A DNA stretch of 64,000 nucleotides from Trueperaceae bacterium (lineage in GTDB: Bacteria; Deinococcota; Deinococci; Deinococcales; Trueperaceae), in the NCBI GenBank assembly GCA_965215565.1, contig CBDCDZ010000004.1:1312001-1376000 (forward strand), written 5' to 3'. The first letter of the stretch is position 1. Each line of letters starts with the position of its first letter. Under the pieces are notes generated by a model that was not told the origin of the DNA, did not search any database, and was given only the letters and a program-made list of their open reading frames with translations. Shown here piece after piece: positions 12,467-23,466 of the stretch. The translations under genes were made by a program, and so were the position numbers.

Positions 12467-15205
12467 TTACAACACCGCAATCCCCTCAATGTACCCAATC
12501 CGAATCTCAGAACTCCCCTTCTTACCCGGTGTACTCGCCCGCACGTAGGGCGTCGAGCCCGAATACGTCACCGACTCGGGGATGACCTTTTCCGTGACGC
12601 GCTTACCCTTGACTTTTTTGTCGTAGCCGTAGCGGTTGTAGTTCGTCTTTTCGTGGTGGTAGCGCAGCTCGAGCTGCCGCCCCTGCGCAATGGCCGCCTC
12701 GATGAGTTCGCGCATCTTGCGGGTGTTGAGCCCGGTCTGCATGGCGCTGCTGTCGATGACCTGCGGTTTCACGTCCGCTTTGAAGCGTTCGGCGGGCTCT
12801 ATGCCAAGCTCGGAGAGGTGTTGCTCGAGCCGCTCCTCATGCCCCTCTTGAACCAAGAAGCTCGTTGCGTTGATAGAGGTGCTCAAGTGCGGCGCAATTT
12901 TGGGGTGCTTAGCGAGCGCCGCCGCGCTCGGGTGCTGAAAGACGCGAATCGTCGCGACGGTAGGGGCGGCGCTCTGGCCACTCCACACGTTGATGAGCGC
13001 TTCTAGCTGCGGCGGCAGACCGCCTTGCGCCCGTTCGGTAAGCGCGTCGCGGGCGGCTTGGGTGAGCGCGCCAGCGCGAACCTTGTCCACGTCGAGGTGG
13101 TACCCTTTTTCGTCTTGGGTAGCGAGTTGCGCTAAGACAGCGCGCCCTGCCAAGTCGGTGGCACCCTCCAACTTGAAGTGTCCCGAAGGCAGAAAACGCA
13201 GGGTGCGGCTCGGTGCATGGCCGTAGTGGTGGCGCACCTTGACTTTAGGCGGTTGTGCGCCTTTTTCCAGTAAGACGAAGCGTTCAGCCACGGGTCTCGC
13301 CCCTCGTCCCTGCAACTTTTTCAACGCGGTGTCTCGCTCTTTTTGGCTCGCGTATTCGAGTAGCCGCACGTCCTCTCTCACCTGCAAACGCTCGCGGCGC
13401 GACGCCCAGTCGCGCAAACTCTGTGTGACGTTGTCGGGGACGCCCATGCTGTGCTCGTTCAAGAGGTCGAGTAAGCCTCTTAGGTCTAGTCCGGTCTCGA
13501 GGGCGCGGTAGAGGCTCCCTCGGCTCAGCGTGTAGCTCGCCGTTTGCGCGTCCACGCGGGTCATTGCGGCGCAACTGAGCGCGGTCATCGCGGCGGGCGT
13601 GAGCTTGTCCAGATAGACTAAAATGTCGAAGTTCGGCTGAATCAGCAAACTGGGCTCGCTGGGTTTGCCCGTCTCGGGCTCGAGCCCTCCACGAAGCTGC
13701 GCTTCGGGCAGCGTCGTGACCTCTTGCAAGGCTCGCCCACGCTGGAACCATTCGAGACCTGACGCGGGCGCGACTGCGTGCCTGTACCCGGTGTCCTCTT
13801 TGTAGAGCGACGACGCCGGTACGATCTCGCCATTAACCATCACCTTGACGCCGTCTCGAGCTTTCTTCTCGGGTTGACTCACCCCTTTCAACTCCACTAT
13901 TCCTACCAAGCCTAGTTCGTGAAACGCGCTTTGCAGCACGCTGGCGAACCAAGCGGGGCGCTCAGGCTCGGCGTCGTCACCCCAACGCGGAGCCCTAGCT
14001 ACATACCTGAGCGTCCGCGTCCACAGTTCTTCCAGCGCCGCGTCCATCTTCATAGGTCGCTCCGGCAACACTTCCAGACTCTCTAAAAGCGCCCGCTTCG
14101 CCACCTCTTTGGAGACCAGGTCGGACGCGCCCGAGCCCCAAGCGCTGTCCGCTTCGGGGAGTTGCAAGTAGGCGTCCACCACGAAGCTGTAGGTGAGCGC
14201 TAAGGGCGCGCTTCTAAGCGCGTGGAGGCGCATGGGGTTGACGCGCCAGGGGTCTTTGCTGGACTCGCTCGTAGGCGGATCGAAGAGCCCCAGCGTTACG
14301 CCTAAATGCAGCAGCGTTTCGACGCGCCCTTCTAAGTTTGGACTGCGTTTCGCTAAACGCTTGAGCAGCGTTTTACTGACCGTGCCGCGCTGGGTGATCG
14401 GCACGCCGCCCTCTTCGGTGGTAAGAGACAAGAGGTCGAACAGCTCGAGCAACGTCCGCGCTGGATGCACCGCCGTGGGCGTGACGCCCTCGAGGGGTTT
14501 TAGGGCGAGCGGTTGCGGCTCCGGGGGCGGCTCATCCGTCAGGTGCTCCAAGATGCGCGGGTCTGCAAGCAAAACGTCGTCTTCGGGGCTGCTCTCGCTC
14601 CCGTAGAACTGATAGCGCAAAAACCACGAGGCGAGGTTGCTCGTGGGGATGAGCAGCCCGTCGCGAATCAGCACGCCTAGATACTCGAGCCCCAAAGCAC
14701 TGTTAAGTTGTTGCTTGTAGACGCTGCCGCTACCCACTCGCTTATTTGGCGTTAGGCCGCGCAAGGCAGCGTAGATGATGAGTGACCAACCGTCCGCCGC
14801 GCCGCCGCGCCGCTTGACTTCGCCTAAAAGGGTACGCTCAAGCGGGCTGAGCGCGGCTACCATCTGTTTCAGCGCTGCGGGCTTACTAAGCGCCTGTTTG
14901 ACAGCTTTCTTACTCTCCGCCATGCGACTCGCGTTCGCCCCTTCGTTGAAGCGTTTAGCGACCTGCTTGAGTTGGTCGGCGTTCATATATTGCAACATGG
15001 GCTCTAACCCCACGCCTTCGCTCACAGGTATCGACGCTGCGCCGGGTGACGAAGTGAGCGTCACCTTATCGAGCCCCGAGGTGCCGACGCTTACACCCAA
15101 CATGCGAAGTTTCTCGAGCAGTTCTGATGAAATCCCTTCGTCCGTCTCCAACTCACGCTCGCCGCTCAACTCACTGAGCAGTTCTAACAAGCTACCTCTC
15201 GCCAC
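12467..15205 (-). CDS. XPB helicase-associated domain protein with C-terminal WYL-like domain
   Basis: LLIQPNFDIL...YTLSRGSLYRALETG...VPDNVTQSLRDW (XPB N-terminal-like domain); C-terminal LIEAAIAQGRQLELRY...RIGYIEGIAVL. Confidence 0.75.
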   Translation of the reverse strand: MARGSLLELLSELSGERELETDEGISSELLEKLRMLGVSVGTSGLDKVTLTSSPGAASIPVSEGVGLEPMLQYMNADQLKQVAKRFNEGANASRMAESKKAVKQALSKPAALKQMVAALSPLERTLLGEVKRRGGAADGWSLIIYAALRGLTPNKRVGSGSVYKQQLNSALGLEYLGVLIRDGLLIPTSNLASWFLRYQFYGSESSPEDDVLLADPRILEHLTDEPPPEPQPLALKPLEGVTPTAVHPARTLLELFDLLSLTTEEGGVPITQRGTVSKTLLKRLAKRSPNLEGRVETLLHLGVTLGLFDPPTSESSKDPWRVNPMRLHALRSAPLALTYSFVVDAYLQLPEADSAWGSGASDLVSKEVAKRALLESLEVLPERPMKMDAALEELWTRTLRYVARAPRWGDDAEPERPAWFASVLQSAFHELGLVGIVELKGVSQPEKKARDGVKVMVNGEIVPASSLYKEDTGYRHAVAPASGLEWFQRGRALQEVTTLPEAQLRGGLEPETGKPSEPSLLIQPNFDILVYLDKLTPAAMTALSCAAMTRVDAQTASYTLSRGSLYRALETGLDLRGLLDLLNEHSMGVPDNVTQSLRDWASRRERLQVREDVRLLEYASQKERDTALKKLQGRGARPVAERFVLLEKGAQPPKVKVRHHYGHAPSRTLRFLPSGHFKLEGATDLAGRAVLAQLATQDEKGYHLDVDKVRAGALTQAARDALTERAQGGLPPQLEALINVWSGQSAAPTVATIRVFQHPSAAALAKHPKIAPHLSTSINATSFLVQEGHEERLEQHLSELGIEPAERFKADVKPQVIDSSAMQTGLNTRKMRELIEAAIAQGRQLELRYHHEKTNYNRYGYDKKVKGKRVTEKVIPESVTYSGSTPYVRASTPGKKGSSEIRIGYIEGIAVL

Positions 15206-15207
15206 GC

Positions 15208-15471
15208 TCAGCCCTCGACTTTAGGCGTATGCCCCGCCTTGAGCAGCGCCTTGAGAAAACTCTGGTGATGCTGGGGTAGCACAACCGCTTCGGTAGGCGA
15301 GAGCCGCGCTAAGATAAAATCTTTCAGGCGGGCGTCGGCTTGTAGAGCGCTCAACTCCGCCTCGTCTGAGACCTCGACGAGCGTCAAACCCTCGTGCAGC
15401 GCAACTTCTTTGGGAGCGGGGAGGGGCTCGAGCGAATCAAACTTGAGATTTCGTCTAGGTTTAGCGGACAT
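15208..15471 (-). CDS. Small hypothetical protein in the XPB operon (87 aa)
   Basis: AAGGAG RBS before MSAKPRRNL; LTLVEVSDEAELSAL...LARLSPTEAVV resembles subdomains of helicase-associated proteins. Confidence 0.7.
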   Translation of the reverse strand: MSAKPRRNLKFDSLEPLPAPKEVALHEGLTLVEVSDEAELSALQADARLKDFILARLSPTEAVVLPQHHQSFLKALLKAGHTPKVEG

Positions 15472-15487
15472 GAAAACTCCTTTAAGT

Positions 15488-15587
15488 AAAAAGCAACGAG
15501 CAATGAGTTGAAAGTGTAAAAGCGTTTTGGTTTTCACTCATTGCTCGGTACTCATTGCTCCCTATCTTTCACTACTTGGTACTCATC
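15488..15587. repeat. GAGCAATGAG heptamer-ladder hairpin inside the XPB operon
   Basis: gagcaatgagt at 15498-15508 with actcattgctc at 15536-15546 and 15550-15560. Confidence 0.7.
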
Positions 15588-15589
15588 CT

Positions 15590-17308
15590 TTAGTTCAGCG
15601 TGCTCGCATCCCTTACTTCCGGCTCCAACCACTCCGCCTCGTCCATAATCCTATACCCGTAGCCCTGCTCGGTCAAAAAGAGCTGCCTATGGTGCGCGAA
15701 GTCCTCCTCTTTGGTCTCGCGGGTGACGAGGCTGTAGAAGTAAGCGCTGACACCCGCACGTTTCGGGCGCAGCACGCGCCCCAAGCGTTGCGCCTCCTCC
15801 TGGCGTGAGCCGAACGCGCCCGAGACCTGAATCATCACCTGCGCGTCGGGCAAGTCGAGCGCGAAATTGCCGACTCTGGATAAGACGAGCGTCTTCACGC
15901 CGCCCTCCCTAAAGGCGGCGAAGAGCCGCTCGCGTTCGCTCTGCGGGGTTTCGCCCGTGATGAGCGGCGCGTCTAGGTCATTCGCGATGAGTTCTAACTG
16001 GTGCAGATACTGTCCGATTACCAGGCTCGGCTCACCTCGGTGATGGTCTAAAATCGTTTCGACCAGCTCGCGTTTACGCGGGTTCTCGGCGGCGATGCGG
16101 AACTTCAGCGCGGGCTCTGAGACCGCGTAGCTGAGCCGCTCTTCTTCGGACAGTCTGAGTCGCACCTCGCAGCACTGTGCGTTGGCGATCCAGCCGCTTT
16201 GCTCGAGGTCTTTCCACGGCACGTCAAAGCGTTTCGGACCGATGAGCGAGAACACGTCCCCCTCGCGCCCGTCCTCGCGAATCAGCGTCGCGGTGAGCCC
16301 CAAACGCCGCCGCGCTTGCACCTCGGCGGTGAGGCGGAACACGGGCGCGGGCAAGAGGTGGACCTCGTCGTACACGATGAGCCCCCAGTCCTGCTCGCGA
16401 AAGAGCTGCATGTGCGGGTAGACCGCTTCGGTCTCCTCTTCGCCCTTTTTGCGCCTTTTGCGCGTAGTGAGCATCTGATAGGTGCAGAGCGTGACCGGAC
16501 CCAGCTTCTTCGCGTTGGGGCGGTACTCCGCGACGTCCTCATGCGTGAGTGTGGTTTTGTCTAGCAGCTCGCGCCCCCACTGGCTGACGCTGGTGCGGTT
16601 CGTCGTCAGGATGAGCGTGCGCTGACCGACCCTGGTCATAGCGACGAGACCCACGACGGTCTTGCCCGCGCCGGGTGGCAAGACGATGACGCCGGAGCCG
16701 CCCTGCCGGGAGCCCCCGAGATAGAAGGCTTCCGCCGCGTCCTCTTGATAAGAACGCACCTGCAAGGTGTCGGCTAAAGCGACGGAAAGCTCTAACCCGT
16801 CACGGTAGCCCGCCAAGTCCTCGACGGGCCAGCCGACCTCTAAGAGCGCCTGCTTAATTAAACCCCGGTGCGCCAGCGGCACGGCGAAGGTCTGCTTGCC
16901 AAGGCGTTCGCCTAAAAGCGGGGTGACCTTGCGCTGTTTGGAGATCTCCAAGAGCAGCGCTTCGTCGCCGGGTTGGACCTCTAACCCGAGCCCCGCCCCC
17001 ACTTCCATGAGCCGCAGCCGTCCCCAGCGCCCAACGAGTTCCCGAACGTCCGTGATCACGTTTTCAGGGACGGGAAACTTGCTAAACGAGGTAAGCGCCG
17101 CCACCATCGTCTCGCTTTTTTGCCCACTGCTCGCGGCGTTCCATAAGGAGAGCGGCGTGAGCCTGTAGGTGTGCAGGTGTTCGGGGCTTTTCTCCAACTC
17201 GGCGAAGGGCGAAATCGCCGCCCTCGCCTCCTCTGCACGCGCATTGAAGGTCTCGAGGTAGATAGAGCGGTCCGCTTGCACGATGAGGGGGTTGGCAGCG
17301 TCGAACAT
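15590..17308 (-). CDS. Bacterial XPB/Rad25-type DNA helicase
   Basis: NPLIVQADRS, ELEKSPEHLHTYRLTPLSLWNA, PPGAGKT, DEVH, GLTAT, QRLGRVLR. Confidence 0.92.
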   Translation of the reverse strand: MFDAANPLIVQADRSIYLETFNARAEEARAAISPFAELEKSPEHLHTYRLTPLSLWNAASSGQKSETMVAALTSFSKFPVPENVITDVRELVGRWGRLRLMEVGAGLGLEVQPGDEALLLEISKQRKVTPLLGERLGKQTFAVPLAHRGLIKQALLEVGWPVEDLAGYRDGLELSVALADTLQVRSYQEDAAEAFYLGGSRQGGSGVIVLPPGAGKTVVGLVAMTRVGQRTLILTTNRTSVSQWGRELLDKTTLTHEDVAEYRPNAKKLGPVTLCTYQMLTTRKRRKKGEEETEAVYPHMQLFREQDWGLIVYDEVHLLPAPVFRLTAEVQARRRLGLTATLIREDGREGDVFSLIGPKRFDVPWKDLEQSGWIANAQCCEVRLRLSEEERLSYAVSEPALKFRIAAENPRKRELVETILDHHRGEPSLVIGQYLHQLELIANDLDAPLITGETPQSERERLFAAFREGGVKTLVLSRVGNFALDLPDAQVMIQVSGAFGSRQEEAQRLGRVLRPKRAGVSAYFYSLVTRETKEEDFAHHRQLFLTEQGYGYRIMDEAEWLEPEVRDASTLN

Positions 17309-17373: not shown

Positions 17374-17571
17374 GTGAAACGTGCTCTACTCAGTCGCATC
17401 ACGACTGACCCTGAAATCTGTCACGGCAAAGGGTGTATCCGAGAACTTAGATATTCGGTGGAGATGATTCTCGAGCTTCTCACGAGCGGTGTGACGTGGG
17501 ATGAGTTAGAGGATTACGAAGGCTTGGAGCGTGCGGATTTGCAAGCGGTTTCAGCTTCAGCGACCTCTTGA
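17374..17571 (+). pseudogene. DUF433 antitoxin-like gene, probably degenerate
   Basis: RITTDPEICHGKGCIRELRYSVEMILELLTSG; shortened C-terminus and no PIN/DUF5615 partner. Confidence 0.7.
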
Positions 17572-17732: not shown

Positions 17733-17754
17733 AGGGCGGTCTCGAGACCGCCCT
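17733..17754. terminator. Perfect 22-bp palindrome at convergent gene ends
   Basis: AGGGCGGTCTCGAGACCGCCCT. Confidence 0.65.
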
Positions 17755-18730
17755 AACTCAGTTTGTGCAAGGTTCTCGCCAAGCCTTCTTGCCACGACAC
17801 CTTCGGCACATACCCAAGCTCTTTTTTCGCATTCTCAATAGAAAAGTGAACATCTTGCCGCATGAGCCGCGCCCTATAGCGGGTGAGCGGCGGCTCCCTT
17901 TGCGGCGCAACCTTCGCGTAAAGCGTTTCCACCACGCTGGAAAGAGGTTCGACGATACTCCCCGGCAGATTGAGGCGCGGTTTGGGTGCGTCCAAGAGGT
18001 TGGAGAGTTCGGTGAACAGCGCGCGCCAAGTCGGGGCTCCTTCGTCCGCGATAAGGTAGGTTCGCCCTGCGGCTGCGGGCGCGGACCCCGCTAAAACGAG
18101 TCCTTGCACCAGGTTCTCGGCGTACGCCGTGTTGAACACGGACGTGCCCCCGTCCACAAGAGGTAGCGTGCCGCGTCTAACCTCTCGCACAACCCTCAGA
18201 AAATTCGGGTCCCTCGTTCCGAAGGGCCACAGTCCGGGGCGGATGACAACGACTTCCAAATCTGATTTTATTGCCACATCTTCAGCTAGAACTTTTGAGT
18301 GGGCGTAGGCGTTGATGCTGCCGTCCCTAGGCAACGTGCGCGTATCTGCCTCCCTAAAACCCGTGTAGGGATGGACGGCGATGCTCGAGACCAACACCAA
18401 CCTCTTGACCTTTGACCTTTCAGCCTCTTTGAGTAGGTATTCTGTCCCCGAAACGTTCGTCTGGTAGAACCCCTCCCATGCACCCCAGTCCGCAACTTTG
18501 GCGGCGGCGTGAAAGACGACGTCAACCTCTTTGCAAACACCGCTTAGGCTCTCGGGTTGGGTGAGGTTGGCGCTTGTCAGCTCGAGCTTGGGATGCTCCA
18601 AAACTGCACCTAAGTTGTCTAGCCTCCCCCACGGACTCACCAGCGCGCGCACCGCCCAGCCTTCAGCCAGTAACCTCTCCGTAAGGTGACTGCCGATAAA
18701 GCCGTGCGCCCCGGTGACGAGCGCCTTCAC
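17753..18730 (-). CDS. NAD-dependent epimerase/3-beta-HSD-like extended SDR; candidate ceramide/3-keto-sphingoid reductase
   Basis: TGAHGFIG Rossmann motif and YAHSK (YxxxK). The specific role is inferred from context only. Confidence 0.8.
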   Translation of the reverse strand: MKALVTGAHGFIGSHLTERLLAEGWAVRALVSPWGRLDNLGAVLEHPKLELTSANLTQPESLSGVCKEVDVVFHAAAKVADWGAWEGFYQTNVSGTEYLLKEAERSKVKRLVLVSSIAVHPYTGFREADTRTLPRDGSINAYAHSKVLAEDVAIKSDLEVVVIRPGLWPFGTRDPNFLRVVREVRRGTLPLVDGGTSVFNTAYAENLVQGLVLAGSAPAAAGRTYLIADEGAPTWRALFTELSNLLDAPKPRLNLPGSIVEPLSSVVETLYAKVAPQREPPLTRYRARLMRQDVHFSIENAKKELGYVPKVSWQEGLARTLHKLS

Positions 18731-19443
18731 GGAAAGAGCGCGCCTTGACGCGCGAGGATGAACACGTCGGTGCTGAGCCCGATGACGAGGTGGAGGATGA
18801 CGGGATAGAGGAGCGACCTACCTCTCAGCGCTAAGACGGCGAAGAGGAGTCCGGCGGGCAGCGCGGCGAAGGTCTCGGCGGGCGGCTTGCCTAAGTGAAC
18901 CAGCGTCGAGGCGAGGGCTTGCGTCCAGATGGCGGCGGAGAGACCCCACACAGGCTCGATGACACGGAGCATGAAGCCTCGGTAGAAGAACTCGAACGAC
19001 ACGTAGTAGAGCCCGTAGAGGAACACCCAGGACAAGAGGTTGAAGGGCGACGCGCCGACCCACGCCCCCGCCCAGGGATAAGTGAGTTGCAGTGATGGGT
19101 CCGTGCTGCCGAGCGCCATTATGACAACCGCGACGAGCGAGGCGACGAGCGTGACGCTCACGCCGAAGCGCCAGTTGCCGAGCCCGAGCCCAACCTTGCG
19201 TAGTGAATCGCCCAAGCCCAGCATGAGCCCGGCGGGTAGCAAGAGCAGAAAGACGAGCGCCGTGCCTATGTTGAAGAGCGCGGTGGGCAAGGTGCGCGGT
19301 GTGTCTCGGAGGAGCTGCGGACCGGGACTGCCGAGATACCAGTAGGCGATCTGCAAAAGCGCCGCCATCAGGAGGTAGAGCGCGAGTTTGCTCCTGAACA
19401 GCGCGGCTAAGTCCGCGAAGAGGAGGCGCAACGAGGTCATCAT
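18727..19443 (-). CDS. CPBP (CAAX/Abi) family intramembrane protease-like protein
   Basis: Multiple TM helices; FEFFYRG, LVHLGKP, ILH motifs; ATGA-coupled to the SDR. Confidence 0.8.
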   Translation of the reverse strand: MMTSLRLLFADLAALFRSKLALYLLMAALLQIAYWYLGSPGPQLLRDTPRTLPTALFNIGTALVFLLLLPAGLMLGLGDSLRKVGLGLGNWRFGVSVTLVASLVAVVIMALGSTDPSLQLTYPWAGAWVGASPFNLLSWVFLYGLYYVSFEFFYRGFMLRVIEPVWGLSAAIWTQALASTLVHLGKPPAETFAALPAGLLFAVLALRGRSLLYPVILHLVIGLSTDVFILARQGALFP

Positions 19444-19450
19444 AAAACGT

Positions 19451-20566
19451 CTATAAAGTCTTCTGGTAGATGCGGTAGGTTTTGTAAAGCGCTGCGCCCG
19501 CCGCTGCGATGCCCTTGTTCATCTCCTCGTTGTCCTCTAAAATCCAGGAGCACTCGCCGCGCATATAGCCCTTGGCGCGGCTGCGCCTAATCACCTCGTC
19601 GATGAGCACTAACTCCAACCCCTTGCGCCGGTGCTCCGGCACGACGCCGAGAATCGGCAGGCGCGCCTGCGTGAGGATGCGCTTGCGGCGCAAGTAGTGG
19701 ATGAACCCGAAGGGCAAGAGCCGCCCGTTCATCTTCTTAAAAACTTGGTTGAGGTCGGGCAAGACGAGCGCCAAGCCCGCCATTTCGCCGTTCATCTCTA
19801 AAAAAATCACCACGTCGGGGTCTACGATGAGCTTGAGTTCCGCCGCGAGATGGTCAAATTCGGCGTCGGTGTACTTGACGAAGCCCCAGTTGTTCTCCCA
19901 AACCTCATTGTAAAAGTGCTTGACGACGCCCAGTTCGGAGTCGAAGTTGCCCTTGATGTCGGGCGTACGAATAGTGGGCGCGTAGCGCTTCTTGACTCGC
20001 TCGGCGAGGCGGTGAAGCCTGGTGTAGTCGCTCGTTTCGTGGTCAAAAAACCAGGCGTAGAGGTCTTTGGCTTTAGCGTAGCCTGCCCCTTCGACGTAGC
20101 GCGGGTACTCCGGCGGGTTGCTCGGCATCATCACGTAGGGGTCGGTGTCGAAAGCGTCGATCTGAAAGCCCGCGCCGTCGTTCATCGAAGGGTTCGCGGG
20201 ACCGCGCAAGGTGTCCCTGCCGAGTTTTTTCGCCCACGTCTCCGCGTGGTCCAAGAGGTCCTTGGCCACCCCTTCGTCCGCCGCCTCGAGAAAGCCAAAA
20301 AACGCTAGGTTGTCTCCGTGCGTTCGGTTGTGCAGTTCATCGTCGATCGCCGCGATGCGCCCGACAACCTTACCGCCGCGCTCCGCCAAGAAGAGGTCCA
20401 TGCGGGCGTGTTCGTAAAAAGGATTTTTCTTAGGGTTAAAACGTTCCCACTCGCCCATGCGGAGCGGCGGAACCCAGTACGGATCGTCCTTATATTTTTG
20501 ATACGGATAGTCGATGAAGCGTCGCAGCTCGCGCCTCGAGCCGACGGGCGTGATAACGGAGGTCAT
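19451..20566 (-). CDS. GNAT-like N-acyltransferase of the bacterial ceramide synthase (bCerS)/YghO family
   Basis: YKDDPYWVPPL, NPFYEHA, VGRIAA, FGFLE, LRGP, MMPSNPPEY, WENNWGF, LPDLN, SWILEDN, KTYRIY. Confidence 0.75.
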   Translation of the reverse strand: MTSVITPVGSRRELRRFIDYPYQKYKDDPYWVPPLRMGEWERFNPKKNPFYEHARMDLFLAERGGKVVGRIAAIDDELHNRTHGDNLAFFGFLEAADEGVAKDLLDHAETWAKKLGRDTLRGPANPSMNDGAGFQIDAFDTDPYVMMPSNPPEYPRYVEGAGYAKAKDLYAWFFDHETSDYTRLHRLAERVKKRYAPTIRTPDIKGNFDSELGVVKHFYNEVWENNWGFVKYTDAEFDHLAAELKLIVDPDVVIFLEMNGEMAGLALVLPDLNQVFKKMNGRLLPFGFIHYLRRKRILTQARLPILGVVPEHRRKGLELVLIDEVIRRSRAKGYMRGECSWILEDNEEMNKGIAAAGAALYKTYRIYQKTL

Positions 20567-20632
20567 ATGGACGCAAGCATACCGCATGGGGTTGGGGGTG
20601 TCGCGCGCCGCTCGAGCACGGGACATGAGCGC

Positions 20633-20663
20633 AAAAAAAGGGATGAGGTCAGAGCCTCATCCC
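20633..20663 (-). terminator. Intrinsic terminator after spt
   Basis: Minus strand reads GGGATGAGG-ctctga-CCTCATCCC-TTTTTTT. Confidence 0.85.
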
Positions 20664-20744
20664 GCACGCTTACACTGTCTTTTCTGAGCCACAAGGCTCG
20701 AGTCGCCCCAATCAGCAGCGTTCTACTGCCAATTTCAACGAAAC

Positions 20745-22082
20745 TCAGACAATAACGCCCAAACGCCTACCGACGTCCGAGAACGCCTCTAACAACCTGT
20801 CGAGTTGCTCGTCGGTGTGGTTCGCGTTGACGCTGGTGCGAATGATGCTCTGCCCAGCAGGAACGCCGGGCGGGAGCGCGGGCGTCGTGTAGACGCCCTC
20901 TTCCCACAACCCTTTCCAGAACATCATCGTCAGGTCGTCCTCACCGATGAGCACGGGCACGATGGGCGTTTCTGAGCCCATTGTGTCGAAGCCGAGCGTG
21001 TCCATGCCGCGCTTTAAGCGCGCCACGTTGCGCCAGAGCTTAGCGCGGTGCTGCGGCTCGTCACGCATGATGTGGAGCGCTTGCAGCGCCGCCGCCATCT
21101 GCATCGCGGGCAGCGCCGCCGTGAAGATAAAGGGGCGCGCCTTGTGCTTGACCCAGTTGACCACCTCGCGGGGTCCCGCCATGAAGCCACCCACCGAGGC
21201 GAACGACTTGGAGAACGTACCGATGACGAGGTCAACCTCGTCCTCTAAGCCGAAGTGCTCCGCTGTGCCGCGTCCGTTCGCGCCCAGCACACCCGTCGCG
21301 TGAGCGTCGTCCACGACGATGCGCGCGCCGTAGCGCTTTGCCAGCTTGACCAGCCCCGGCAAGTTGGCGATGTGACCGCTCATCGAGAAGACTCCGTCGG
21401 TGACGATCATGCGTCCACCCGGTTTGTCGGCGTCTTTTTGCAGGAGCCGCTCTAAGTCCTCTAGGCTGTTGTGCTCGTACTTGCGGAGCGTGCCGAACGA
21501 GAGCCGCGCGCCGTCATACAAACAGGCGTGGTTCTCGCGGTCGAAGTAGAGGATGTCCTGGCGTCCGGTCACCGCGCTCAGCACTGCGAGCGAGCCCAGG
21601 TAGCCCGCGCTGAAGGTAAGCGCTGAGCCCGCGCCGAAGAAGTCCGCGAGCTGACGCTCCAACTCCTCGTGGAGCGTCAGGGTACCGGTGAGAAAGCGCG
21701 AGCCTGTACAGCTCGTGCCGAAGTCGCCGAGCGCCTCTTTCGCCGCCTCTTTGAGCCGCGCGTCCTGGGTGAGCCCTAAGTAGTCGTTCGAGCCCGTGAT
21801 GACCATCTCGCGCCCGTCCACGATAACGGTGCCACCCTGCTGCGACGCGATCGCTTTGAAGTAGGGGTGCATCCCCGCCTCCGCCGCTTCGTCCGCACGG
21901 GTAAAGTTATACGCCTTGCTGAAAATGTCGGCGGCGCGCTCGGCGGGCCTATCCAAAACGCTGCTGCGCGCCGTACTCCCTTGTACGTTCGCCCTTGCAG
22001 GTTTTTTTACGGTCGATTTTACAGATGGCTTCACGCTCGTTTTCGCATCTGTATTCAGTATGTTATCCACAGCGTCTGACAA
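20745..22082 (-). CDS. spt: Alpha-oxoamine synthase, serine palmitoyltransferase-like
   Basis: HPYFK, GSNDYLGLT, GSRFLTGT, HACLYDG, DDAH, GTFSKS, RPFIFTAALP; TTG start with GGAGG RBS (GTG at 22070 is an alternative). Confidence 0.75.
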   Translation of the reverse strand: MSDAVDNILNTDAKTSVKPSVKSTVKKPARANVQGSTARSSVLDRPAERAADIFSKAYNFTRADEAAEAGMHPYFKAIASQQGGTVIVDGREMVITGSNDYLGLTQDARLKEAAKEALGDFGTSCTGSRFLTGTLTLHEELERQLADFFGAGSALTFSAGYLGSLAVLSAVTGRQDILYFDRENHACLYDGARLSFGTLRKYEHNSLEDLERLLQKDADKPGGRMIVTDGVFSMSGHIANLPGLVKLAKRYGARIVVDDAHATGVLGANGRGTAEHFGLEDEVDLVIGTFSKSFASVGGFMAGPREVVNWVKHKARPFIFTAALPAMQMAAALQALHIMRDEPQHRAKLWRNVARLKRGMDTLGFDTMGSETPIVPVLIGEDDLTMMFWKGLWEEGVYTTPALPPGVPAGQSIIRTSVNANHTDEQLDRLLEAFSDVGRRLGVIV

Positions 22083-22367: not shown

Positions 22368-23466
22368 ATGGTTTACGACGAACAACCCTTACCCCAAAGC
22401 GAGTTTACTGGATAGACGTTGCCCTAAGTGCGAGATAAGGAAGCCTGAGAGTGGCAACGGCAGGGCGGCCTGCCCGTAACGCGGCTACCGCATCAGGAAA
22501 CACCGAGATGTAAACGGTATACGTGAAGAGAAAGTGTTGCGTGTGCGCTGTCAGCGGTGCAAAGGCAGCTTGGGGTGTGTTTACCCAGAGGGTGTCATGC
22601 GCTATAAGTGGTACAGCCGAAAGGTGGAGGGTATCTTTGCCATCTTAGATGTGCATCAGGTTGATGAAAGCTGCGCTGCTGAGGTAGCCGAGCACTTAGG
22701 TTATCCAATTCAGAGCGAAACTCGCGCCTCATGGCAAGGGACACGCGCTCTAAGAGCCGAGCGGCTAGAAGAGAAACAGGCAAAGCCCACTAAGCTCAAA
22801 GCCGCGAGCATAGACGAATTCAAACTAGGCGAGTGGTGGATGTACACGCTTACTGATGTTAAATCTCAAGCCGTTATGGACTACCGCCTATGCGAGAACC
22901 GTGATGAAGAGGTGGTTCGTGAGCTTATCGCTGCACACAACCCTAAGCTGATCATCAGTGATGGGTGTAAGAGCATCCAAGCGGCGTGTGAATACTTCGC
23001 TGACAAGCCGCATGGACGCTGTTGGTTTCACATCATCGAAGAGGTCTTGAAGCAGTTCCCCAAGAGAGAGCGTGAACTCGTGGCGCTTGATCTGCGTTTC
23101 TTGTATACCTGCACGAACCTCAAAGATGCAAGGTGGTTTCTAGGCGTCCTCACCGCTCGCTACGGCGCAACCCAGCTCGAGCCGCTACTGAATGCCTGGA
23201 CGCAGCTTGAATTCTACTGGCAGTACAAGGCGATGCCCTTGACCAACAACGCTTCGGAAACCCTTTATAGCGCTCTATGGTCAAGAAACAAAAAGCGCGT
23301 TGTCAAAGCCTTCCACCGCGCTTTGGACTGGTTCAAAGAAGCCCGCTATAGATGGCATCATCACCTCATTCGCAACAAGTCTCCCTGGCAACGCTTCACC
23401 GGACAACCCAGCAAGCCCTGGCTCAAAGCGCTCCTCACTCCTCTGAACTACTCAACCGACTTTTAG
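22368..23466 (+). pseudogene. DDE transposase with interrupted N-terminal zinc ribbon
   Basis: CPKC...CQRC, SIDEF, IISDG, CWFH, TNNASE; in-frame TAA at 22477 lies inside a 27-nt insertion; ATG 22368 is out of frame. Confidence 0.75.
22454..22480. repeat. 27-nt mobile hairpin cassette inserted in the transposase
   Basis: 22454-22482 is the exact reverse complement of 48470-48498. Confidence 0.9.

Follow-up and report, generated by a model that had tools for sequence, protein, structure and literature searches.

Can a member of the Deinococcota, a phylum known for glycerol-based phosphoglycolipids, make sphingolipids? The question is raised by four co-oriented genes in a 64,000-nucleotide stretch of a Trueperaceae genome (GenBank assembly GCA_965215565.1, contig CBDCDZ010000004.1, positions 1,312,001 to 1,376,000; the whole stretch is referred to below as the window). 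They encode an alpha-oxoamine synthase resembling serine palmitoyltransferase (Spt), a tandem GNAT-domain acyltransferase, a CPBP membrane protein and an extended short-chain dehydrogenase/reductase (SDR). The original prediction, made from the sequence alone, had interpreted them as a ceramide cluster comprising spt, the bacterial ceramide synthase bCerS, CPBP and a reductase; the four minus-strand reading frames were found as placed (Table 1), and each of the ten quoted motifs occurs once. Its central claim, that the organism makes ceramides or related amino-lipids, is upheld at the level of genomic inference by the profile, structure, homology and tree comparisons of the Spt-like synthase and the bCerS-family GNAT and by their co-occurrence in related genomes. 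We consider it likely that the genes specify a (glyco)ceramide pathway in which an Spt-type condensation would be followed by N-acylation by bCerS, reduction of the 3-keto group by the SDR and CPBP pair, glycosylation and flipping.

The synthase finds its best NCBIfam profile in NF047600, the Bacteroidetes-type Spt (444.6 bits), and a PDB search ranks the Spt of Sphingobacterium multivorum first (366 bits), ahead of the best AONS/KBL entry (303 bits) and E. coli Kbl (264 bits). Most of the residues that surround the bound serine in a solved Spt (excerpts of PMC10196870) are kept, namely N52, G80, S81, F83, H138, S185, T241, S243 and K244, and the GTFSKS motif with its catalytic lysine and the stacking His138 are present. 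Kbl has a valine at the S81 site, and the predicted contrast holds in that E. coli Kbl reads SVRFICGT at the corresponding alignment columns. SulA/CFAT, the cysteate acyltransferase of sulfonolipid synthesis, shares the fold and reaction type and was tried as a candidate identity. The diagnostic position is a lysine in cysteate enzymes and an alanine in Spt (excerpts of PMC9304779); by motif position the site of SulA Lys281 is an alanine in the window synthase (FTAA, against FSAS in S. multivorum), and with the lower scores of cysteate-type enzymes in the PDB search (255 and 241 bits) this candidate was rejected. A quick tree of 86 rows places the window synthase in a clade (55 rows, starred support of 100) whose members come from Deinococcota and Rubrobacteraceae. 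This clade belongs to a group of 73 rows (SH-aLRT 92) that also takes in E. coli BL21 Spt and synthases linked to a GNAT in Chloroflexota, Balneolota and Ignavibacteriota. A separate clade (starred support of 96) unites E. coli Kbl with enzymes of the Kbl/BioF type from two other Deinococcota families, so that the expected separation from Kbl and BioF stood. A second synthase clade occurs in some Trueperaceae (L129, L130, L133 and L135), with nearly equal scores on BioF (405-410 bits) and Spt models (389-406 bits).

The second gene product is the sole match in the genome to E. coli YghO (34% identity, 383 aa, E 5e-68), bearing out its predicted kinship with bCerS; in E. coli BL21(DE3), yghO corresponds by homology to the acyltransferase gene of Caulobacter and ECD_02852 to that of its reductase (excerpts of PMC9386255). 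The published homology rule for bCerS and CerR is E <= 1e-30, with coverage >= 50% for bCerS (PMC11334938), and the window GNAT lies within it against the YghO stand-in. Its motifs line up across a 12-row alignment; a PDB sequence search retrieved no relative, and an ESM Atlas search returned generic GNAT names only. By homology and by linkage to spt the protein is a predicted bCerS. A bCerS-like GNAT (29%) was also seen in two archaeal metagenome-assembled genomes of the Thermoplasmatota (L100 5387-6487 and L102 1293-2393), where no synthase lies nearby.

How general this association is was surveyed in 364 Deinococcota genomes, with orthologue thresholds of E <= 1e-100 for Spt and E <= 1e-60 for the window type of SDR (type A); the counts are tallies of related genomes, not tests. 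Family code f1 is read as Trueperaceae because the closest named relatives of the window belong there (73-81% GNAT identity); the counts of GNAT, Spt, SDR-A, CPBP and GT28 genes for this family each include one unpublished genome, G324, whose locus L029 also enters the Spt, GNAT and joined trees. The GNAT is present in 106/127 Trueperaceae, 19/19 genomes of family f3 and the single f6 genome, and in none of 216 genomes of three other families (0/125, 0/23 and 0/68) that, judging by their sizes, are taken as Deinococcaceae, Marinithermaceae and Thermaceae. Spt orthologues follow the same pattern (98/127 Trueperaceae, 18/19 f3 and the f6 genome), the best matches in other families being at about 1e-92 or weaker, and every one of the 98 Trueperaceae with an Spt orthologue also carries the GNAT. 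Eight GNAT-positive Trueperaceae have no Spt orthologue: in two the locus lies at a contig end (G326, G358), two have weak or paralogous matches (G292, G294) and four have a divergent GNAT (G320-G323). The pathway is not universal in the family, because some near-complete genomes, such as G299 and G351, have neither gene. Linkage of spt and GNAT recurs in other phyla; the two are unlinked in f3 and in genus g15. The survey across Deinococcota for which the original prediction called finds the Spt and GNAT pair in Trueperaceae and one other family of the order, and not phylum-wide.

The reductase slot departs from the characterised pathway. The window SDR keeps TGxxGxxG, N92, S115 and Y142xxxK146, and its best NCBIfam profile is OleD (160 bits against a cut-off of 580). 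The expectation of a CerR orthologue was not borne out: in a search with the E. coli stand-in the window SDR aligns at 25% identity (E 1.2e-12) and falls in a separate clade. This type A SDR forms its own clade (starred support of 100) and is found in 80/127 Trueperaceae and nowhere else in the phylum. A second type, SDR-B, groups with E. coli epi (92, unstarred) and occurs in 15/127 Trueperaceae, typically directly after the GNAT gene. Among the 106 GNAT-positive genomes of the family, 80 have SDR-A, 15 SDR-B, one both (G357) and 12 neither; neither type was seen in a Trueperaceae genome without the GNAT. A third SDR clade occupies the same slot in Chloroflexota, and variety at this step has a precedent in Bacteroides, which uses BT_0972 (excerpts of PMC9278070). 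Several Trueperaceae carry a two-domain fusion of an extended and a classical SDR at the cluster end (L119 13757-15598, L143 and L144).

The CPBP protein accompanies SDR-A closely: it is present in 85/127 Trueperaceae, in 80/80 genomes with SDR-A and in 2/15 with SDR-B. From the filling of the reductase slot we infer that CPBP and SDR-A replace CerR. Glutamic intramembrane proteases of the CPBP family are marked by the motifs EExxxR, FxxxH and HxxxN. The window protein has a single glutamate in the first (FEFFYRG), and H183, E190, H218xxxG and D226 are conserved, glycine replacing asparagine in the last motif; E190 and D226 are extra invariant residues of the alignment. It shares PF02517 and a helical membrane fold with Rce1, MrtA and SpdC and differs from them in its single glutamate, its HxxxG motif and its genomic neighbours, which are lipid genes and not known sorting signals; Rce1, MrtA and SpdC are not known to us to act on lipids. 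Its best NCBIfam profile is MrtA (67.9 bits against a cut-off of 200), and Foldseek with its structural model (pLDDT 92.7) gave no match at E <= 0.001, only weak resemblance to SpdC and Rce1 (E 0.03-0.35). Myxosortase-type sorting signals (TIGR04288, TIGR03901) had no match in the genome, a search in which the control genomes were equally silent. A metagenome scan for the CPBP retained 80 of at least 91 loci. Among the matches listed, SDR-A follows CPBP in 50/51 close loci, and an extended SDR adjoins CPBP in 19 of 28 distant ones (L208-L236, with L214 removed as close), many of them near-duplicates. In the three distant loci examined (3/3) the pair is bordered by genes for a DAGK/YegS-type kinase and a PAP2_3 protein; these loci (L212, L220 and L234), from a low-G+C lineage, have the order kinase, SDR, CPBP facing the PAP2_3 gene and no spt in their flanks. 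The company it keeps points to a place for the CPBP-SDR pair in lipid metabolism, without defining a reaction.

The genes that follow the cluster in relatives suggest what happens to its products. There the operon extends into a GT28/MGDG-synthase-like glycosyltransferase, a UDP-galactopyranose mutase, an LPG_synthase_TM flippase-like gene and GT2/GT4 genes. The GT28 gene lies downstream in 34/51 close metagenome loci, among the matches listed, and was found in 65/102 Trueperaceae genomes sampled, 1/10 of f3 and 0/188 others. In the source genome three GT28 copies lie elsewhere, two of them beside flippase-like genes. LpxC had no match there, in a search that was positive for 4/14 controls, and LptF2/LptG2 had none either. 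These observations point to glycosylated cluster products in a lineage without LpxC. A cultured species carries part of the cluster: Truepera radiovictrix encodes at least a GNAT 65% identical to that of the window (P0121, WP_013178044.1) and an SDR-A 59% identical (P0122, WP_013178046.1), two accession numbers apart. Its glyco- and phospholipids are reported as uncharacterised, alongside branched fatty acids and 1,2-diols, and peptidoglycan was not detected (excerpts of PMC3072082); the lipids of Thermus and Deinococcus are amide-linked glyceroyl-alkylamine phosphoglycolipids (excerpts of PMC3398001). The cluster was considered as a route to alkylamine or 1,2-diol lipids and rejected, as the genera that make these, judging by family sizes, fall in families without it. 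Excerpts of the HexSDF work contain no link to bCerS.

Several observations weigh against a ceramide pathway. The synthase scores below every curated Spt cut-off (444.6 against 640 bits for NF047600, 395.2 against 500 for NF047599 and 320.7 against 670 for NF047603), a shortfall shared by the synthases that are linked to a GNAT in Balneolota, Ignavibacteriota and Chloroflexota (468-544 bits). BLASTP gives a near-tie, with 37% identity and 251 bits for E. coli Kbl and 37% and 263 bits for E. coli BL21 Spt. The clade uniting the synthase with the latter, at SH-aLRT 92, is unstarred, carries long-branch warnings and contains a single assayed Spt. Compared with the S. multivorum enzyme, the synthase shows the changes S53 to D, A79 to T, N85 to T, N117 to S and M271 to I, and the cofactor-proximal ones are specific to its clade. 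The GNAT and SDR comparisons rest on E. coli stand-ins, which the excerpts of PMC9386255 name as homologues of Caulobacter bCerS and CerR and not as assayed enzymes, and the SDR falls outside the 1e-30 CerR rule of PMC11334938 against its stand-in. G320-G323 combine a divergent GNAT with no synthase match, and the chemotaxonomy of T. radiovictrix names no sphingolipid in the excerpts of PMC3072082, where polar lipids are left uncharacterised.

Could the synthase then be a housekeeping Kbl or BioF in an incidental neighbourhood? It is the sole alpha-oxoamine synthase found in its genome, which together with the BLASTP near-tie would fit such a role; we nevertheless regard it as most improbable. 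Its scores lie below the cut-offs of the Kbl/BioF models too (396.8 against 535 bits for TIGR01825, the BioF/Kbl-type model, 385.6 against 426 for TIGR00858, BioF, and 374.1 against 460 for NF005394, Kbl), whereas the Kbl/BioF-type enzymes of the phylum reach 589-606 bits on TIGR01825 and sit in the other clade. Neither bioB nor bioD has a match in the source genome, many Trueperaceae retain a second, separate alpha-oxoamine synthase, and the linkage to the GNAT is conserved across phyla. Another possibility is that glycine, alanine or a different small amino acid is the preferred substrate, in which case the enzyme would yield amino-ketone lipids, of the 1-deoxy type or another, for acylation by the GNAT. 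The clade-wide aspartate at S53 and the loss of the asparagine at N117, both near the cofactor, are in keeping with this, as are the depth of the fully supported clade and the threonine at A79, the counterpart of a human site that has been linked with a change in substrate use (excerpts of PMC10196870). It is unlikely all the same: the serine-contacting N52, G80, S81, H138 and S243 are intact, the assayed E. coli Spt likewise has a threonine at the A79 site, and the downstream glycosyltransferases would suit a C1 hydroxyl.

A third possibility detaches the GNAT, SDR and CPBP from any sphingoid base and has them modify glyceroglycolipids, for instance by N-acylating an amino sugar. G320-G323 would fit such an arrangement, as would the terminator and -10-like element that set the three genes apart from spt in the window, and GT28 and flippase pairs make glyceroglycolipids elsewhere (excerpts of PMC10128005). 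This appears quite improbable in view of the invariable presence of the GNAT with Spt in Trueperaceae, the short spt-GNAT gap in most loci (see below) and the recurrence of the linkage in other phyla; the families devoid of the GNAT are, moreover, taken to include Thermus and Deinococcus, which make amide-linked glycolipids (excerpts of PMC3398001). In G320 (L124, 3953-8493) the divergent GNAT gene lies beside GT4, flippase-like and GT28 genes, in a genome with no synthase match; the protein has a long branch and a degenerate C-terminal motif, and may be a relic or repurposed.

The (glyco)ceramide pathway, which we continue to favour, would proceed in four steps whose order is taken from excerpts of PMC11087976. 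The Spt-like enzyme would condense L-serine with a fatty acyl-CoA or a housekeeping acyl-ACP (acyl carrier protein, ACP) to a 3-keto long-chain base. The cluster has no ACP or acyl-CoA ligase gene, as the original prediction had stated, and a single ACP, at about 2,633,966 of C4, came up in a motif scan of the genome; the Bacteroidetes-type subgroup likewise lacks a dedicated ACP or ligase. The GNAT would then N-acylate the base to a keto-ceramide, judging from its family, and the type A SDR, no CerR orthologue, would reduce the 3-keto group, as its place in the cluster suggests; the weakest element is the CPBP protein, which might assist the SDR in the membrane by holding or presenting the lipid. 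Finally, sugars may be added by GT28 glycosyltransferases and the lipid moved by flippase-like proteins, whose genes adjoin the cluster in relatives and are scattered over the source genome.

This scheme has its closest counterpart in the pathway of Caulobacter and E. coli BL21(DE3), with Spt, AcpR, AasR, bCerS (aca/YghO) and CerR (epi) (excerpts of PMC9386255 and PMC11087976). The two share the clustering of an Spt-like synthase, a bCerS-family GNAT and an extended SDR; unlike that system, the window cluster has no specialised ACP or acyl-ACP synthetase, the genome has no LptF2/LptG2 match and no LpxC was found, the SDR belongs to another clade and CPBP is added. The Bacteroidetes-type SPT (S. 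multivorum, PDB 3a2b/8guh; NF047600) is the best structural and profile match, with the serine-site residues kept, but differs in that the window enzyme scores 445 against 640 bits, has the five near-active-site changes and an N-terminal extension of about 50 aa, and is encoded in a cluster. Clade B of the Spt-like proteins of Ding et al. 2024 (PMC11334938), which spans 40 phyla, is likewise a gene-level prediction of Spt-like enzymes beside bCerS; Deinococcota are not named in its main text, the phylum list being placed in the supplement, outside that check. A literature search at listing level returned no report of sphingolipid genes in Deinococcota or Rubrobacter, the species list of Stankeviciute 2022 lying outside it, and the string 'Deinococc' has 0 occurrences in the portions of text seen of PMC11334938, PMC9386255, PMC13692747 and bioRxiv 10.64898/2026.04.12.717747.

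The layout of the locus adds detail on its expression. The GNAT and CPBP genes are 7 nt apart, and CPBP and SDR overlap by 4 nt at the CPBP stop. The TTG start of spt at 22082 is backed by relatives, which show an L/V-S-D/E start after a purine-rich, ribosome-site-like stretch; relatives begin the GNAT at the position equivalent to ATG 20566 rather than 20626, and the former is most likely the start, a correction to the earlier placement. The predicted terminator was recovered as a perfect 9-bp stem (20663-20640) followed by T7 (-16.9 kcal/mol); the genome has no second copy of the hairpin even when 4 mismatches are allowed. A scan yielded 2 sites of this kind, where shuffled sequence would lead one to expect 5.6, a count that shows no enrichment. 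As for the promoter-like element proposed for the three downstream genes, TATGCT is present and kept in the genus, while a sigma-70 scan returned 0 promoters. The stretch GGTATGCT precedes the GNAT start in 3/3 genomes of the genus, 8 nt from the start in the other two, with differing flanking sequence. Among the 34 loci examined (of 40), the spt-GNAT gap is <=30 nt in 21, leaving no room for a terminator or a -10 element; the split of spt from GNAT by a terminator is lineage-specific, not general. In another genome of the genus (L016, G258) spt and CPBP are 93% and 90% identical to those of the window and the GNAT is 63% identical and placed elsewhere in the tree, which suggests that the GNAT of one or the other was swapped in place between the internal promoter and CPBP.

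Table 1. Features of the candidate ceramide cluster, in positions of the window
Feature	Position	Strand	Remarks
Alpha-oxoamine synthase, Spt-like	20745..22082	minus	445 aa, TTG start; profile, PDB search, tree
Intrinsic-terminator-like hairpin, between spt and GNAT	20633..20663	minus	9-bp stem, T7; lineage-specific
TATGCT -10-like element, 9 nt before likely GNAT start	20576..20581	minus	putative function, from sequence
bCerS-family tandem GNAT	19451..20566	minus	371 aa; frame open to 20626; Pfam PF00583
CPBP/Rce1-like membrane protein	18727..19443	minus	238 aa; Pfam PF02517; altered motifs
Extended SDR, type A	17753..18730	minus	325 aa; catalytic set kept; own clade

The source genome (4.49 Mb) is 99.99% complete. 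Recent insertion of the cluster was rejected, as its G+C content, 0.57-0.65 per kb where the contig has 0.58, shows no sign of it. Upstream of spt, at a distance of about 450 nt from its start and divergent from it, lies an IS256/IS66-like transposase gene (22534-23466, plus strand; G+C 0.50-0.52), a stretch that may touch the spt promoter region. A gene for a 65-aa DUF433 protein (17374-17571, plus strand) stands alone and convergent on the SDR gene, where relatives have the GT28 gene. Immediately downstream of the cluster (12467-17308, minus strand) are genes for an XPB/Rad25-type helicase (15590-17308) and a 912-aa Helicase_C_3 protein (12467-15205).

Beyond the phylum, the closest clusters belong to the Rubrobacteraceae (Actinomycetota), including R. 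taiwanensis, which carry spt, GNAT and SDR-B at 70-76% (spt) and 57-63% identity; spt identity in the loci of Balneolota, Ignavibacteriota and Chloroflexota is only 42-50%. Within the class of the Rubrobacteraceae 28/104 genomes have the GNAT, 7 of the 28 being unpublished (G384, G447-G451 and G461). Because the Rubrobacteraceae share spt at 70-76% identity, the cluster has likely crossed between Deinococcota and Actinomycetota. Rubrobacteraceae nest within Trueperaceae in 4/4 trees; approximately unbiased tests did not reject a single Deinococcota clade that excludes Rubrobacteraceae (p 0.164) or, on joined Spt and GNAT alignments, Trueperaceae as one clade (p 0.513). A Deinococcota donor is favoured only by the breadth of the distribution. 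In five Rubrobacteraceae loci (L040, L046, L047, L049 and L050) a sulfatase/LTA-synthase-like gene follows the cluster, and four of these loci have, ahead of the cluster, a gene for a 391-aa membrane protein that lacks annotation. This gene content hints that the head group differs in that family.

A bolder picture can be drawn, which we consider rather doubtful as a whole. LpxC-lacking Trueperaceae would build their outer membrane on glycosphingolipids, as Sphingomonas does by convergence and in contrast to Deinococcus and Thermus; the CPBP-SDR pair would be an undescribed sphingolipid module, in which the protease-fold protein might remodel or transfer the ceramide amide or anchor proteins to ceramide; and transfer of the cassette between two radiation-resistant lineages would have given the monoderm Rubrobacteraceae sphingolipids.

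Finding Spt and bCerS genes in further phyla is unsurprising in itself, given the 40 phyla of PMC11334938. What the window adds is a probable third way of filling the reductase step and a CPBP subfamily tied to lipid metabolism across phyla; three-gene screens of the kind that requires CerR homology, which SDR-A lacks at the 1e-30 rule against the E. coli stand-in, would overlook such clusters. For the Trueperaceae the analysis predicts a major, unexamined class of membrane lipids for the whole family, a prediction that is testable in cultured T. radiovictrix, whose polar lipids have been described merely as a complex mixture.

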